A stretch of DNA of 4,718 nucleotides, from IMG/VR virus record IMGVR_UViG_2778261352_000002. One strand, given 5' to 3'. The DNA comes from a virus. Its lineage: Duplodnaviria; Heunggongvirae; Uroviricota; Caudoviricetes. The notes beneath the pieces were generated by a model. It was not told the DNA's origin. It saw only the letters and a program-made list of their open reading frames with translations, and ran no database searches. The position numbers and the translations under genes were made by a program. Positions within the stretch are counted from its first letter, which is position 1. The number at the start of each line of letters is the position of its first letter. Positions 1 through 4,718 of the stretch are shown here, piece by piece.

Positions 1-435
1 CGAACTGCTTCCGTGGCGCATAGCACTGCCAGATGAATAACACATCCCCGTCAATACGGCCCTCGCTGTACGCTTACCTTTGTTGCAATGAGGGCAGATC
101 AAAAGGGCACCTTTTTGTACTCTTGAAAAACTGTGTTCTGACTCTTGGGTGCAGTTTGGGCAGGAACATTTAACGAGATAATTACGGCGTGATTTTGAGT
201 TTTTACGTTCTGACATAGGCTTTTCCTGTATAAATGGCCGTATACAGTACACTAAATATGAAAACATTTCTCGTATTATTATTTTATATATGACTTTCTT
301 TCAAAATAATTACCCACATTTTTAATGTGTATGTTTTTTTAGCGCCGTTGAGAACAACGTGTGCTGTCAAAACTACCCCGTAGACTCCGATCTTTTCAAA
401 CATATTGCACCATCCGTGTACATCGGGGTGAGGAT

Positions 436-651
436 ATGAAATCAATGGATAAGTTAACAACAGGTGTTGCCTATGGCACATCGGCGGGTAATGCTGGTTT
501 CTGGGCATTGCAGTTACTCGATAAAGTAACTCCGTCACAGTGGGCTGCAATCGGTGTGCTGGGTAGCCTGGTTTTTGGCCTGCTGACGTATCTGACAAAT
601 CTTTATTTCAAGATTAAAGAAGACAGGCGTAAGGCTGCGAGAGGAGAGTAA
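436..651 (+). CDS. essQ: Class II pinholin (phage 21 S21-type), 71 aa, with dual-start motif Met1-Lys2-Ser3-Met4
   Basis: ORF in the 361..651 frame; the likely start is ATG 436, preceded by GGGGTGAGGA (SD-like), with a second in-frame ATG at 445. The protein [71 protein letters not shown] has two TMDs (Gly/Ala-rich SAR-like TMD1) and a basic C-terminus, as in S21 68/71. Sits directly upstream of a SAR endolysin. Confidence 0.9.
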
Positions 652-655
652 TCCA

Positions 656-963
656 ATGACTCAAGACTATGAACTGGTTGTGAAAGGAGTCCGTAATTTT
701 GAGAATAAAGTTACGGTAACTGTAGCCTTACAGGACAAAGAACGCTTTGACGGTGAAATTTTTGACCTGGATGTCGCCATGGACCGTGTTGAAGGAGCTG
801 CGCTGGAGTTTTATGAGGCAGCAGCCAGAAGGAGCGTCCGGCAAGTCTTCCTGGAAGTAGCAGAAAAATTGTCAGAAAAAGTTGAGTCTTATCTGCAGCA
901 TCAGTACTCCTTTAAGATTGAAAATCCTGCCAATAAGCACGAGCGTCCTCATCATAAATATAT

Positions 964-967
<4 letters not shown>
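656..967 (+). CDS. ydfR: DUF1327-family small protein (YdfR-like, 103 aa) between holin and endolysin; function unknown
   Basis: ORF 656..967 starts 5 nt after the holin stop, with GAGGAGAG SD upstream. Its TGA stop overlaps the endolysin ATG (ATATGA at 962-967), consistent with translational coupling. Length and position match ydfR of Qin-type prophages as recalled. Confidence 0.8.
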
Positions 968-1991
<1,024 letters not shown>

Positions 1992-2174
1992 GGTAATATT
2001 AAATCGGAACATTTACATCGCGGAATGTAAAATTTAAATAAAAAGGACTCTTCCATGAGCCAAAATTCCTGAAATCTTAAGGGTAAGATAAAAGGTCTTA
2101 ATCAGAATGACACGTTATTATTAATAAATAAAGCTATTCTTTCATTGCTGTGTTTTTCTTTACAAAAGTAATCC

Positions 2175-2203
2175 TTGCTATGGGTGGTTAATCATGCGTT
2201 AAT
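2175..2203 (+). promoter_or_regulatory. cspA-type sigma70 promoter for the cold-shock gene (-35 TTGCTA, 17-bp spacer, -10 GTTAAT), preceded by an A+T-rich UP-like tract (about 2116-2174)
   Basis: TTGCTA at 2175-2180 and GTTAAT at 2198-2203 resemble the cspA promoter (-35 TTGCAT, -10 CTTAAT, as recalled). The predicted start near 2210 gives a 5' UTR of about 145 nt, in line with the long leaders of cold-inducible csp genes. Confidence 0.45.
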
Positions 2204-2209
2204 GGTGTT

Positions 2210-2354
2210 CTGGTTTGTTACAAATTTATCTGAAGCAGTCATTGTTATAATTTTATTATTTGTATCTCTTGAGATTTCCTTGTTGGTTTTTCTCTCTGAT
2301 ATTTTTTTTCGGACCATTCTGCCCAAGGGCTAATTTCTTCAAAAGGTAATAATT
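2210..2354 (+). promoter_or_regulatory. Long 5' untranslated leader of the cold-shock gene (likely cold-responsive mRNA structure)
   Basis: About 145 nt between the predicted transcription start and ATG 2355. SD region AAAAGGTAATAATTATG resembles the cspA leader/RBS, and the coding start ATGTCTAACAAAATGACTGG contains a downstream-box-like sequence. Confidence 0.4.
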
Positions 2355-2567
2355 ATGTCTAACAAAATGACTGGTTTAGTGAAATGGTTTAACCCTGAAA
2401 AAGGTTTTGGTTTCATCACGCCGAAAGATGGCAGCAAAGATGTGTTTGTCCATTTCTCAGCAATTCAGAGCAACGATTTCAAAACATTAACTGAGAATCA
2501 GGAAGTTGAATTTGGTATTGAGAACGGACCTAAAGGTCCTGCCGCTGTTCATGTAGTGGCGCTTTGA
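2355..2567 (+). CDS. cspI: Cold-shock protein, CspA family (CspI-like), 70 aa
   Basis: ORF 2355..2567. [70 protein letters not shown] contains the RNP1 (KGFGFI) and RNP2 (VFVHF) motifs of the cold-shock domain. AAGG SD sits 8 nt upstream. Confidence 0.95.
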
Positions 2568-2600
2568 GGTAGACAATATTACAAACCATATTCACTTTAG

Positions 2601-2766
2601 ATGCCCGTGTTGTCATGGTTCCCAGTATAGAACATCATCTTTTGATGTTTCTGACATGAATCCTTTCGGGGCAAAATGTATCTTTTGTAAATCAATGATG
2701 ATTACATTTGATAATATTTCACAATACTTAAATGCCAGCCGTCTGTCGTTGGATTTAAAAAAGTGA
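2601..2766 (+). CDS. Possible small Cys-rich (zinc-ribbon-like) ORF downstream of cspI; start codon unresolved (possible frameshift at CCC 2604-2606), may be a pseudogene or unannotated small protein
   Basis: The frame beginning with codon TGC 2602 reads RCPCCHGSQYRTSSFDVSDMNPFGAKCIFCKSMMITFDNISQYLNASRLSLDLKK and stops at TGA 2764-2766, 6 nt before a strong intrinsic terminator. It has no in-frame ATG/GTG/TTG before the Cys cluster; the first in-frame ATG is 2656. An ATG at 2601 sits one base out of frame, and deleting one C from the CCC run would give a 55-aa ORF, MPCCHGS... No convincing SD. Confidence 0.25.
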
Positions 2767-2771
2767 AAATG

Positions 2772-2794
2772 AAGGCTCCTTCGGGAGCTTTTTT
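2772..2794 (+). terminator. Rho-independent terminator (GCTCC-UUCG-GGAGC stem-loop followed by a T6 tract)
   Basis: Stem 2775-2779 pairs with 2784-2788 around a TTCG tetraloop, extendable by flanking A/T pairs. T-run at 2789-2794. Lies 200 nt downstream of the cspI stop and directly after the small Cys-rich ORF. Confidence 0.65.
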
Positions 2795-2838
2795 GCTTGG
2801 TATCTATTCGATGGATACTCACATACTACGGTAACATC

Positions 2839-3069
2839 ATGAAAAAAATCATAGTTTTTTTTAACTCTGAACCTGCAGTGGTAGTGCCAGCGATGACTGG
2901 AGTTAACACCATCATGCGTGAATATCCAAATGGCGAAAAAACACACCTTACTGTAATGGCCGCAGGGTTTCCATCTCTGACCGGAGATCATAAAGTCATT
3001 TATGTAGCCGCGGATCGACATGTTACTTCAGAAGAAATTCTGGAAGCAGCAATAAGGCTCTTGAGTTGA
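2839..3069 (+). CDS. ynfN: Small hypothetical protein (up to 76 aa); positional equivalent of ynfN between cspI and gnsB; alternative starts at 2893 and 2914 (51-aa version)
   Basis: ORF in the 2797..3069 frame. The TTG at 2797 is unlikely; the first ATG is 2839 (no clear SD), and ATG 2914 has GGAG 11 nt upstream. The protein (MKKIIVFFNSEPAVVVPAMTGVNTIMREYPNGEKTHLTVMAAGFPSLTGDHKVIYVAADRHVTSEEILEAAIRLLS) is soluble-looking with no recognisable motif. Symbol assigned only by synteny. Confidence 0.5.
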   Translation: MKKIIVFFNSEPAVVVPAMTGVNTIMREYPNGEKTHLTVMAAGFPSLTGDHKVIYVAADRHVTSEEILEAAIRLLS

Positions 3070-3185
3070 TTTGATGCTATTGTATTGATAATTCAGGAAA
3101 ATTTTCTTTGTCTGTTTGTGTAAAATTTAGACTATCGTATGTTGATTATTGCGATGTTTCATCTTATCTTTTACACGTTTGCACC

Positions 3186-3191
3186 ATATAA
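3186..3191 (+). promoter_or_regulatory. Candidate -10 hexamer (TATAAT) for the gnsB-like gene; no good -35 identified
   Basis: Perfect TATAAT at 3186-3191, about 50 nt upstream of ATG 3241. The upstream -35 region matches the consensus poorly. Confidence 0.25.
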
Positions 3192-3240
3192 TCGACTTAC
3201 TGTGTAACTGGAAAGTCATAACAGACTAAAAGAGGAAATG

Positions 3241-3414
3241 ATGAATATTGAAAACTTAAAAACAAAAGCAGAAGCAGATATTTCTGAATATATAACAAAA
3301 AAAATTATTGAACTTAAGAAAAAGACCGGGAAAGAAGTTACCAGTATTCAGTTTACCGCACGGGAAAAAATGACGGGTCTTGAAAGCTATGATGTCAAGA
3401 TTAATTTAATCTGA
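3241..3414 (+). CDS. gnsB: GnsA/GnsB-family small protein (57 aa)
   Basis: Not in the ORF track because it is short. ATG 3241 (a second ATG lies at 3238), AGAGGA SD at 3231-3236, stop TGA 3412-3414. Translation MNIENLKTKAEADISEYITKKIIELKKKTGKEVTSIQFTAREKMTGLESYDVKINLI closely resembles E. coli GnsB/GnsA as recalled. Confidence 0.85.
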   Translation: MNIENLKTKAEADISEYITKKIIELKKKTGKEVTSIQFTAREKMTGLESYDVKINLI

Positions 3415-3440
3415 TGTATTCAATAATAAAATTTATCCAT

Positions 3441-3466
3441 AAACCTCGTTTTTACGGGGTTTTGTT
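3441..3466 (+). terminator. Probable intrinsic terminator downstream of gnsB (short G/C stem with G-U pair, then T-tract)
   Basis: CCTCG (3444-3448) pairs with CGGGG (3455-3459) around a TTTTTA loop, followed by TTTTGTT (3460-3466). Lies 27 nt after the gnsB stop. Confidence 0.4.
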
Positions 3467-3528
3467 ATATTTGAATGGTTCCGAATATCTAAATCACAAT
3501 TGTTGATGGTTTTTATTAAACCAATGCA

Positions 3529-3557
3529 GTCCGGCTCAGGAGTGAGAGAAGCCGGAC
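3529..3557 (-). other. Stable stem-loop immediately 3' of the ydfO-like gene on the minus strand (possible transcript 3'-end structure or weak terminator)
   Basis: 8-bp G/C-rich inverted repeat GTCCGGCT (3529-3536) and AGCCGGAC (3550-3557) with a 13-nt loop, 9 nt beyond the minus-strand stop at 3566-3568. No clean U-tract on either strand, so terminator function is uncertain. Confidence 0.3.
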
Positions 3558-3565
3558 GTTATGGT

Positions 3566-3976
3566 TTAGCGTGGTAAGATCTGTGTAGTTTTCTGGATGC
3601 TTTCAGTAAATAGTAATGAATTATCAAAGGTATAGTAATATCTTTTTTGTTCGTGGATATTTGTAACCCACCGAAAAACTCCTGCTTTAGCAAGGTTTCT
3701 TCTGTATTCCTGAAATGTGATCTCTCTGGATTTCAGCTTATTAGAGGTCGTTTCTATAAGATGCCTATCCTTTGAAAATTTGACAGACACAATGTTTTTT
3801 AGGCCCTTTAATAACACTGTATTATCATTTTTTAATACAATATGAACATTCTCTGTGGCTAAATAGTAAATGTAATGTGAGACATTGTGACGTTTTAGCT
3901 CAGAATAAAACCATTGATAGTTTAAATCGTTTCGAACTTTATCAAATATTTGTTTAAAAATGACTACCTGATCCAT
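3566..3976 (-). CDS. ydfO: DUF1398-family protein (YdfO/YbcV-like), 136 aa, function unknown
   Basis: Minus-strand ORF 3566..3991. Preferred start is ATG 3976 ([14 protein letters not shown]...) because GGAAGG SD lies 7 nt upstream, whereas the ATG at 3991 has none. Length and sequence match the YdfO/YbcV family as recalled; a homologous gene occupies the same position left of cos in phage lambda. Confidence 0.85.
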
Positions 3977-4033
3977 AGATAAACCTTCCATGTGATATGA
4001 GGGGGCGTAGTCTGCACGATTATCTAAATTGCT

Positions 4034-4267
4034 TCAATCTGGTCTGACCTGTTTTCTGAGCAATTCAGTAATGTCACTCTTTTCTTTGTTTGCTTCAGAA
4101 GAAACTCTTTTTTCTGAGCACAGTCTCCGGCGGCAGGCTTCAATGACCCAGGCTGAGAAATTCCCGGACCCTTTTTGCTCAAGAGCGATGTTAATTTGTT
4201 CAATCATTTGGTTAGGAAAGCGGATGTTGCGGGTTGTTGTTCTGCGGGTTCTGTTCTTCGTTGACAT
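4034..4267 (-). CDS. ynfO: Small basic protein with ribbon-helix-helix-like motif (YnfO-like, 77 aa); putative DNA-binding protein
   Basis: Minus-strand ORF 4034..4267. MSTKNRTRRTTTRNIRFPNQMIEQINIALEQKGSGNFSAWVIEACRRRL has a basic N-terminal tail, then a beta-strand (RNIRF), helix A (NQMIEQINIALEQ), a Gly-containing turn (KGSGN) and helix B (FSAWVIEACRRRL), the Arc/MetJ/CopG pattern. The overlapping plus-strand ORF 4029..4295 looks like antisense noise. Confidence 0.7.
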   Translation of the reverse strand: MSTKNRTRRTTTRNIRFPNQMIEQINIALEQKGSGNFSAWVIEACRRRLCSEKRVSSEANKEKSDITELLRKQVRPD

Positions 4268-4436
4268 GAGGTTGTCCCGTATTCAGTGTCGCTGATTTGT
4301 ATTGTCTGAAGTTGTTTTTACGTTAAGTTGATGCAGATCAATTAATACGATATCTGCGTCATAATTGATTATTTGACGTGGTTTGATTGCGTAGATGCAC
4401 GTTGTGACATGCAGATGATAATTATTATCATTTTGC

Positions 4437-4443
4437 GGGTCCT
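4437..4443 (+). promoter_or_regulatory. cosQ-like element (GGGTCCT) upstream of cosN
   Basis: GGGTCCT lies about 24-30 bp upstream of the cohesive-end sequence, at the spacing where cosQ sits in phage lambda (recalled, not verified). Confidence 0.45.
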
Positions 4444-4466
4444 TTCCGGCGATCCGACAGGTTACG

Positions 4467-4478
4467 GGGCGGCGACCT
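4467..4478 (+). other. cosN: lambda-type 12-nt cohesive-end sequence GGGCGGCGACCT (terminase nicking site)
   Basis: Exact match to the lambda cohesive end, flanked by GATCCGACAGGTTACG (lambda right end) and CGCGGGTTTTCGCTATTTATGAAAATTTTCCGG (lambda left end). Right-arm and left-arm sequence are contiguous, as in a prophage or circular/concatemeric genome. Confidence 0.85.
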
Positions 4479-4514
4479 CGCGGGTTTTCGCTATTTATGA
4501 AAATTTTCCGGTTT

Positions 4515-4631
4515 AAGGCATTTCCGTTCTTCTTCGTCGTAACTTAATGTTTTTATTTAAAATACCCCCTGAAAAGAAAGGAAACGACAGGTGCTGAAAA
4601 CGAGCTTTTGGGCCTCTGTCGTTTCCTTTCT
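4515..4631 (+). promoter_or_regulatory. cosB: terminase small-subunit binding sites R3 (4519-4530), R2 (4575-4590, inverted) and R1 (4616-4631), with an A+T-rich IHF-site region (about 4540-4570) between R3 and R2
   Basis: R1 CTGTCGTTTCCTTTCT and R2 AGAAAGGAAACGACAG form a perfect 16-bp inverted repeat. R3 CATTTCCGTTCT shares the core. Arrangement and spacing to the Nu1 start (about 190 bp from cosN) match lambda cosB. Confidence 0.7.
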
Positions 4632-4655
4632 CTGTTTTTGGCCGTGGAATGAACA

Positions 4656-4718
4656 ATGGAAGTCAACAAAAAGCAGCTGGCTGACATTTTCGGCGCGAGT
4701 ATCCGTACCATTCAGAAC
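4656..4718 (+). CDS. nohA: Terminase small subunit (Nu1/NohA-type), 5' end only (first 21 codons; continues beyond the window)
   Basis: ATG 4656; translation MEVNKKQLADIFGASIRTIQN is identical to the N-terminus of lambda gpNu1 (winged-helix DNA-binding region) as recalled. Sits the expected distance downstream of cosN/cosB. Confidence 0.9.
   Translation, partial: MEVNKKQLADIFGASIRTIQN

Follow-up and report, generated by a model that had tools for sequence, protein, structure and literature searches.

The ydfR (DUF1327) gene between holin and endolysin in the Escherichia coli Qin prophage: a probable shortened late accessory gene with a candidate host target

RESULTS

A DUF1327 gene in the lysis cassette of the Qin prophage

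We analyzed a 4,718-nucleotide (nt) stretch of phage DNA (IMG/VR record IMGVR_UViG_2778261352_000002; the whole stretch is called the window here), focusing on ydfR, a 103-codon gene of the DUF1327 (YdfR) family that lies between the genes for an S21-type holin (S) and a signal-arrest-release (SAR) endolysin (R). Positions 78 to 4718 were 99.9% identical to many Escherichia coli chromosomes, a match that identifies the window as the late region of Qin, a cryptic prophage. The gene is the same as that for E. coli K-12 YdfR (P76160, Qin; PF07041; PHROGs 34145/2735/2091/406/1085) and has the same neighbors. We found no structural difference from the K-12 locus; only nt 1 to 77 of the window depart from the genomes that match it best.

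The YdfR protein matched the whole PF07041 profile (positions 1 to 93 of 93; 179.9 bits against a cutoff of 25; E = 1.1e-53) and two PHROG profiles (E = 4e-58 and 6e-45). Because the entire Pfam profile was matched at this E value, we rejected the possibility that ydfR is a chance open reading frame (ORF). The original prediction, made from the sequence by a model, had placed a 103-amino-acid (aa) DUF1327 protein between an S21-type holin and a SAR-type endolysin, and matches to PF04971, PF07041, and PF00959 concur with it. The description of the protein as acidic and soluble looking also agrees with its pI of 5.56, its net charge of -4, and a maximum Kyte-Doolittle value of 0.67 in 19-residue windows. 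The hydropathy of the 103 aa revealed no transmembrane segment or signal peptide. As had been stated, no function is assigned to DUF1327 in Pfam, PHROGs, NCBIfam, or PADLOC; YdfR itself had no NCBIfam match, and neither YdfR nor the longer alleles described below matched PADLOC. We also rejected the idea that ydfR encodes a membrane protein, is embedded in the manner of Rz1, or is a known defense gene; the protein has no hydrophobic segment.

The junctions of ydfR with both neighbors are tight. The holin stop codon (TAA, 649 to 651) is separated from the ydfR ATG at 656 by 4 nt (TCCA, 652 to 655), to which the predicted start 5 nt after the stop corresponds, and the strong Shine-Dalgarno (SD) sequence that was part of the same claim is indeed present, with a predicted anti-SD duplex energy of -9.5 kcal/mol. 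At the other end, the predicted stop-start overlap was confirmed as ATGA at 964 to 967, in which the endolysin ATG occupies 964 to 966 and the ydfR TGA occupies 965 to 967. The endolysin start has no SD sequence of its own (+1.1 kcal/mol), and for this allele it is therefore reasonable to suppose that ribosomes reinitiate there after ydfR. A scan within the window found no promoter-like or terminator-like site between the holin, ydfR, and endolysin genes and no promoter or terminator belonging to ydfR. We accept that ydfR is cotranslated with the lysis genes, with the endolysin probably translated by reinitiation. The endolysin aligned from residue 9 with the phage 21 lysozyme (3hde) and RrrD (4zpu), and the SAR label therefore fits. 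Met codons at 436 and 445 of the holin gene (MKSM) are compatible with a dual-start motif. The features of the locus are listed in Table 1.

Table 1. Coordinates of ydfR and its neighbors in the window and of convergent genes in related loci
Sequence	Feature	Position	Strand	Basis
Window	S21-type (class II/pinholin-family) holin gene, essQ/essD	436-651	+	PF04971 Phage_holin_2_1, E = 4.4e-34; "phage lysis protein" in 99.9% identical E. coli locus
Window	SD sequence of ydfR, GAGGAGAG	641-648	+	Within final holin codons; anti-SD duplex energy (predicted)
Window	ydfR, 103 aa, DUF1327/YdfR family	656-967	+	PF07041; phrog_34145 and phrog_2735, both of no assigned function
Window	DUF1327 core domain, codons 1-72	656-871	+	Alignments, AlphaFold2 model, dN/dS, limit of blastn similarity
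Window	Allele-specific tail, codons 73-103, predicted disordered	872-967	+	AlphaFold2 pLDDT; allele alignments
Window	Approximate junction of ~580-bp deletion relative to long allele	953-958		blastn of window against L038 and L038 gene map
Window	rrrQ, 177-aa SAR-type endolysin of the T4 lysozyme family	964-1497	+	PF00959; start overlaps ydfR stop; no SD
Window	rzpQ, Rz-like spanin gene, inactivated	1494-1991	+	Tritos alignment; ORF in three pieces; RefSeq "frameshifted"
L004	Convergent small gene	2744-3040	-	
L005	Convergent small gene	2958-3218	-	
L006	Convergent small gene	4317-4631	-	
L038	Convergent small gene	3039-3320	-	
L003	Convergent small gene	~3012-3260	-	

The overlap with the endolysin gene is a deletion scar

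We compared the window by blastn with a locus carrying a 174-aa DUF1327 allele (L038). Window positions 410 to 953 correspond to L038 positions 2326 to 2870, and 958 to 1497 correspond to 3451 to 3990; positions 2871 to 3450 of L038 are missing from the window. The roughly 580 bp that are missing hold the rest of a C-terminal extension of the DUF1327 protein, a convergent gene of 93 aa, and the spacer before R. Since two collinear blocks of L038 flank this gap, the ATGA overlap is best explained as a deletion scar.

The spacing between the DUF1327 stop and the R start differs greatly among alleles. It is -4 nt in Qin and in the viable phage Tritos, 36 nt in L122, 50 nt in both BP-4795 and YYZ-2008, 55 nt in mEp460, and roughly 130 to 450 nt in Evi, 2H10, PhiR12_2, Stx2-86, and the long IMG/VR alleles, where a reverse-strand gene usually intervenes; over mEp460, BP-4795, 2H10, Evi, PhiR12_2, Stx2-86, and L122, the range is 36 to 360 nt. 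Judged by these spacings, the overlap is specific to one allele and not a property of the family. The alleles of BP-4795 and mEp460 seem to have arisen independently, by truncation of other long forms.

The translation signals of R differ with the presence of the DUF1327 gene. Phage 933W lacks this gene, and there the SD sequence embedded in the end of S serves the endolysin (duplex energy of -8.5 kcal/mol). All DUF1327 genes have good SD sequences, 4 to 29 nt behind the preceding late gene, and the R genes after them have essentially no anti-SD complementarity. As the DUF1327 cassette separates R from the holin-embedded SD sequence and R has none of its own, ribosomes ending on ydfR probably reinitiate on R. 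The endolysin starts after DUF1327 cassettes (window position 964 and L002, L003, L004, L007, and L038), with duplex energies of about 0, share an AT-rich leader (...TGATAAATATCC-ATG).

Escherichia phages carry DUF1327 at a single site, and many lack it

Among 5,426 complete E. coli genomes, 3,647 contained ydfR-like DNA, and 1,789 had the full Qin-type allele; in many genomes, blastn similarity ended at nt 206 of ydfR, at about codon 69. A tblastn search of the phage collection found DUF1327 in 100 records, which were without exception E. coli lambdoid or Shiga toxin (Stx) phages. The ydfR genes of the window and of Tritos are 100% identical, and the Rz gene of Tritos is intact. In all eight annotated phages inspected (Tritos, mEp460, 2H10, Evi, PhiR12_2, Stx2-86, BP-4795, and YYZ-2008), the gene lies 4 nt after an S21-type holin gene and upstream of a 534-bp endolysin gene. 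The 80 IMG/VR loci that we retrieved were likewise all in the S-R slot with a 4-nt holin junction, and 74 of them kept an intact 103-aa ORF.

The holin family itself is far more widespread than DUF1327. It was found in 441 phage records, 341 of which have no DUF1327 gene. The S gene of 933W is separated by 4 nt from an endolysin gene of the same 177-aa type, and in SfI and ev243, which also lack DUF1327, S overlaps an R21-type endolysin gene. DUF1327 is dispensable for the S21-type lysis system.

A pattern-based contig scan, which underreports the DUF1327 family, detected the gene in Escherichia and Shigella only, apart from two metagenome-assembled genome contigs. These contigs (L009 and L012, labeled Veillonella parvula and Bacillota) carry E. 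coli-type ydfR loci of 100% and 84% identity and are most likely misbinned Escherichia phage DNA.

Relatives outside Escherichia lie in tail modules

An exhaustive profile search retrieved 86 DUF1327 clusters among 1.84 billion representatives. Members of 72 to 76 aa aligned without gaps to YdfR residues 1 to 72, had precomputed PF07041 matches, and matched the same PHROGs. NCBI names the distant members as DUF1327 proteins from Sodalis ligni, Serratia sp., Pantoea piersonii, and Yersinia rohdei. The context could be read for eight non-Escherichia gene clusters, and all eight were in lambda-like tail modules. The gene lies between gpM-like and gpL-like genes in three of them (P0252, P0273, and P0269), immediately 5' of gpL in P0263, between gpL and a gpK-like gene in P0255, and between the tail assembly chaperone and tape measure genes in P0265. 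These boundaries are classical insertion points of accessory genes in lambdoid phages. Queries with single distant proteins returned few IMG/VR loci; one of these, L122, is an Escherichia-type S-R cassette with a 328-aa allele.

DUF1327 and lysis genes are therefore not linked across the family, given the tail-module relatives and the 341 of 441 holin-bearing phages without the gene. The original prediction had named a location mostly outside lysis cassettes as an argument against a lysis role. This is what we found for the diversity of the family, and it is not what we found for the number of Escherichia copies.

The role that had been proposed for the gene was that of a lysis-timing or endolysin-regulating accessory factor. 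An acidic protein made in step with the holin could bind the basic C-terminal tail of the pinholin, or the SAR endolysin before its release, and so delay or sharpen triggering. The slot and its 4-nt junction are invariant in the 80 IMG/VR loci and the eight phages, the SD sequence of ydfR lies in the 3' end of the holin gene, and the charges of the pI-4.6 core and the basic holin tail are complementary. Going by the supplement of a chlorophenol red-beta-D-galactopyranoside (CPRG) screen, the Keio ydfR mutant is also among the envelope-defective strains (PMC3879167; screen cited by PMC13232886). However, the deletion cassette in this mutant lies just 5' of a SAR endolysin gene without an SD sequence, which makes a polar effect on rrrQ, such as a resistance cassette driving the downstream endolysin, a simple alternative explanation of the phenotype. 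Tail-module relatives occur in the prophages of other Enterobacterales, about three-quarters of the phages with this holin family do without the gene (933W with the same S and R types), and only one allele is coupled to R, through a deletion scar. A lysis regulator also offers no obvious place for the C-terminal extensions and the convergent partner, and overexpression in K-12 had no growth or lysis phenotype (PMC13232886). We regard a role in lysis timing or endolysin regulation as distinctly unlikely.

The conserved part of YdfR is a 72-residue core with variable tails

Alignments of alleles and distant members confined conservation to residues 1 to about 72 of YdfR. Across 28 sequences, including those from Serratia, Sodalis, Pantoea, and Yersinia, M1, Y53, and E54 were invariant, and Y5 was nearly so. 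The core has a pI of 4.6. An AlphaFold2 model of the core, built from a deeper alignment that included the distant members, had a predicted local distance difference test score (pLDDT) of 90 and a predicted template modeling score of 0.77. It comprises a three-stranded beta meander (residues 5 to 14, 18 to 27, and 34 to 43) followed by a 22-residue helix (50 to 71). The full-length model had a pLDDT of 68, with residues 79 to 103 below 50. YdfR thus belongs to the DUF1327 family by its profile score as well as by its core residues and fold.

A search of the PDB by sequence found no relative of YdfR, and Foldseek searches of the PDB and BFVD gave no match with an E value below 0.001. The top Foldseek matches (tyrosine phosphatases, endonuclease V, de novo beta-sheet designs, and uncharacterized phage proteins) were partial and were dismissed as meaningless.

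Beyond the core, alleles have unrelated tails of 0 to about 250 aa, for total lengths of 72 to 328 aa. The Qin tail (residues 73 to 103) is the stub of a longer C-terminal extension found in 174- to 243-aa alleles, and it continues into a longer domain in P0023 and P0217. Pfam yielded nothing above the threshold for the long C-terminal extensions. Some Stx-type alleles add 200 to 250 aa to the core (328 and 268 aa; L122 positions 2501 to 3487 and L006 positions 3501 to 4307), also with no Pfam match, and several alleles have a C-terminal block in common (…ECNRPSFVV.GD.GKITISENGK.TPPSHQHSE…).

The ratio of nonsynonymous to synonymous substitution rates (dN/dS) in the core was 0.16 to 0.44 between diverged alleles, indicating that the core is under purifying selection. 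It also appears to have outlasted truncation at least three times independently (in the Qin, BP-4795, and mEp460 types). These observations bear on the idea that ydfR is a decaying remnant without a protein function, retained only because its ORF now acts as the endolysin's translational leader or because of the young age of the prophage. The gene arose by truncation and lies in a cryptic prophage with a frameshifted Rz gene, and K-12 shows almost no expression in standard growth and few effects of overexpression (PMC13232886). Disrupted alleles occur as well: P0041 and P0013 are frameshifted or have nonsense mutations, and one allele has only 25 aa. Decay is nevertheless hard to reconcile with the identical allele in viable Tritos with its intact Rz gene, the intact ORF in 74 of the 80 IMG/VR loci, the survival of the core through these truncations, and a dN/dS below 0.45. 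We consider a functionless remnant highly improbable.

A convergent partner gene recurs beside DUF1327

In 11 of the 12 non-Escherichia gene clusters that we checked, the DUF1327 gene was followed after 9 to 41 nt by a convergent reverse-strand gene of 70 to 182 codons and then, after a gap of about 130 to 175 nt, by the next late gene. The same layout is found in Escherichia in Evi, PhiR12_2, Stx2-86, and L038/L039, and an unannotated partner is present in 2H10 and PhiR63_1. The partners form at least five groups without detectable sequence similarity to each other, and both lysis and tail slots are used. The group A partner of Evi (lysis slot) shares 61 to 76% identity with those of L037 (tail slot), L021, and L028, while the DUF1327 cores adjoining them are only 31 to 47% identical. 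In the phage database, all matches of partner groups A and B adjoin a DUF1327 gene. In Evi and L025, GC-rich hairpins separate the two convergent genes. No partner had a match in Pfam, PADLOC, or the annotated PHROGs; the PADLOC search of four partners gave an E value of 0.014 once, which is not significant. Because the convergent gene recurs beside DUF1327 in lysis and tail slots, we conclude that the ancestral unit was likely a two-gene cassette, of which the Qin allele would be the orphaned forward half.

Such a pairing could mean that DUF1327 proteins act on their neighbors. The convergent gene would encode a factor, for example for exclusion, defense, or toxicity, that the prophage makes from a separate promoter; the late DUF1327 protein would neutralize this factor or its effect; and ydfR of Qin, where the partner is deleted, would be a functionless or repurposed orphan. 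The recurrence of the partner (11 of 12 non-Escherichia clusters, five phage types of Escherichia), the exclusive association of families A and B with DUF1327, and the hairpins between the two genes are consistent with this idea. The pair is present as a unit in lysis slots as well as tail slots (partner A in Evi and L037), DUF1327 cores cluster loosely by partner family, and the core diverges faster than partner A. Yet at least five partner families of no detectable similarity stand beside one conserved core, and the partner has been lost from the commonest alleles (those of the Qin, BP-4795/Stx, and mEp460 types), which keep an intact, selected core. The partners matched neither PADLOC nor Pfam, a simple scan detected no promoter for their genes, and their expression and toxicity are purely putative. 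An antagonist directed at the partner is, in our judgment, unlikely.

Other features of the window

RefSeq labels in one 99.9% identical locus read ynfU, essD (holin), ydfR, rrrQ, rzpQ (frameshifted), cspI, ynfQ, ynfR, ynfN, gnsB, ydfO, ynfO, and nohA. The ORF list and Pfam scan of the window concur with this map, with CspI, GnsB, DUF1398, and DUF3950 proteins downstream of the lysis genes. In rzpQ, compared with viable Tritos, the A run at 1573 to 1579 has seven A's instead of eight and there is an extra A at 1718/1719. These two compensating 1-nt indels put about 49 codons out of frame, with a stop codon at 1617 to 1619. Judged by the frameshifted Rz gene, the lysis cassette in the window is decaying.

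A ynfU-like zinc-ribbon ORF (MSERKNSKSRRNYLVKCSCPNCTQ...) occupies positions 1 to 216 on the minus strand and continues past the window edge. Because nt 1 to 77 are unmatched in the E. coli genomes that match the remainder, a rearrangement breakpoint probably lies near position 77, within this ORF. Positions 2355 to 3414, in the interval from the lysis genes to the prophage's terminase end, hold cargo genes for cold-shock and small proteins (cspI, ynfQ/ynfR/ynfN-like ORFs, and gnsB), which indicates a late region heavily burdened with accessory genes.

DISCUSSION

The gene studied here is ydfR in a very common arrangement, and this much was already known. What is modestly new is that the overlap arose by deletion, that relatives lie in tail modules, and that a convergent partner recurs. 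We consider it fairly likely that ydfR is a shortened late accessory gene whose product, a soluble acidic domain, has a target in the host cytoplasm (RNase E being the best candidate), that its effect on endolysin translation is exerted in cis only, and that it is probably not a dedicated lysis protein. The anatomy, the deletion, the distribution, the fold class, and the purifying selection on the core come from the present analysis; RNase E and RNA binding come from the literature.

In our literature search, DUF1327 was mentioned by a single paper, and the string ydfR turned up mostly as the name of a melanoma cell line. In a two-hybrid screen with RNase G, ydfR codons 1 to 72 were recovered three times (PMC13232886, 2026). 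This fragment, which coincides with the conserved core defined here, also interacted with RNase E constructs that have the catalytic half, and full-length YdfR was two-hybrid positive with Rne1-597. FLAG-tagged Rne(1-598) and abundant DNase-resistant nucleic acid copurified with Strep-YdfR. The gene was nearly silent in standard K-12 culture, and overproduction of YdfR did not cause growth arrest (all PMC13232886). Taken with the deletion scar, the dispensability of the gene, and the relatives in tail modules, these data, which are the only experimental ones and point to RNase E and RNA instead of lysis, leave the originally predicted lysis-timing or endolysin-regulating function unsupported.

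If this reading is correct, the full unit would consist of a late-direction DUF1327 gene (a core of about 72 aa, often with a variable extension), a short hairpin, and a convergent gene for a small helical protein. Lambdoid phages of Enterobacterales would carry it, much like a moron, at differing joints of the late operon: exactly between S and R in Escherichia phages and between tail genes in Serratia, Sodalis, Pantoea, and Yersinia prophages. In the Qin/Tritos lineage, the deletion of about 580 bp took away both extension and partner and joined the ORF to the start of the endolysin gene, creating the ATGA. YdfR would be made late from the Q-dependent transcript via the SD sequence inside the holin end. 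Its beta-beta-beta-alpha acidic domain most likely binds a host factor in the cytoplasm. The best candidate for this factor is RNase E/RNase G, at the catalytic N-terminal half and perhaps along with RNA. Such binding would tune RNA turnover late in infection. The sole lysis-related effect of the Qin allele would be reinitiation on R in cis.

Several points weigh against this account. Very few transcripts changed upon YdfR overproduction, and the evidence for RNase E consists of overexpression, two-hybrid assays, and copurification from lysates without nuclease treatment (PMC13232886). An acidic domain would also be unusual as an RNA binder. The CPRG phenotype of the Keio mutant would fit a lysis-related role unless it is polar. 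Escherichia phages keep the gene always at the S-R joint, always 4 nt past the holin gene, and this fixed slot could mean a functional link to lysis instead of coinheritance. The contexts on short contigs (L021, L022, L028, L029, and L036) were mostly unassignable to a phage module, and a simple consensus scan found no promoter for the partner genes.

We also entertain a bolder version, which we think doubtful. The DUF1327 core, its swappable extension, and the convergent gene would together form an undescribed two-gene phage conflict module that moves between lysis and tail joints. Here the partner may be a factor expressed by the prophage and DUF1327 its late counterpart, with the fast-evolving core docking on RNase E at its catalytic domain; ydfR of E. 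coli may then be the orphaned docking half.

The unit resembles several known systems in part. Phage morons are accessory genes inserted between lambdoid late genes, e.g., bor and lom of lambda and gp15 of HK97. DUF1327 behaves like them in being small cargo at late-gene boundaries that is present or absent among similar phages, in the slots S-R, M-L, L-K, and G/T-H, and the convergent partner with its putative hairpin terminator is reminiscent of a classical reverse-oriented moron. The DUF1327 gene differs in that it has no detected promoter or terminator and is read with the late operon via a tight SD junction; it is therefore not a textbook autonomous moron.

Phages also encode modulators of RNase E, such as Srd of T4, gp0.7 of T7, and Dip of phiKZ. 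Like these proteins, YdfR is small and reported to bind RNase E, at the N-terminal catalytic half (PMC13232886). Unlike them, it is probably made late instead of early and has no detected similarity in sequence or fold to any solved structure, and we regard it as a candidate modulator only.

Regulators within lysis cassettes include the antiholins S107 and S21-71, RI of T4, and the endolysin chaperone Gp1 of Ms6. YdfR shares with them its small size, its place inside a lysis cassette with a start beside the holin gene, and, in the Qin allele, the stop-start overlap with the endolysin gene. It differs from them in having no membrane segment or signal peptide, in its absence from most cassettes of the same type, and in its relatives outside lysis cassettes. 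Searches of Pfam, PHROG, NCBIfam, and the PDB and with Foldseek revealed no similarity of YdfR to known lysis proteins.

In colicin operons, a convergent immunity gene precedes the lysis gene. The long alleles are similar to this layout, with a forward gene of constant N-terminal and variable C-terminal parts, a small convergent gene, and lysis genes. Unlike in colicin operons, the partners have no transmembrane segments, DUF1327 proteins of 72 aa without a C-terminal domain are also paired, the pair occurs among tail genes, and toxicity is only putative.

The ydfR gene is one of the uncharacterized "y-genes" of E. coli K-12 and is also carried by many Stx phages. For functional work on the family, the 72-aa core and complete two-gene units (such as those of Evi, 2H10, or Stx2-86) make informative constructs, unlike the Qin allele. 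Phenotypes of ydfR knockouts need to be controlled for effects on the downstream SAR endolysin gene, whose translation context depends on ydfR. Late phage gene expression is a plausible biological setting for the reported interaction with RNase E, and the recurrent convergent pairing offers a testable lead toward a possible new kind of phage accessory module.

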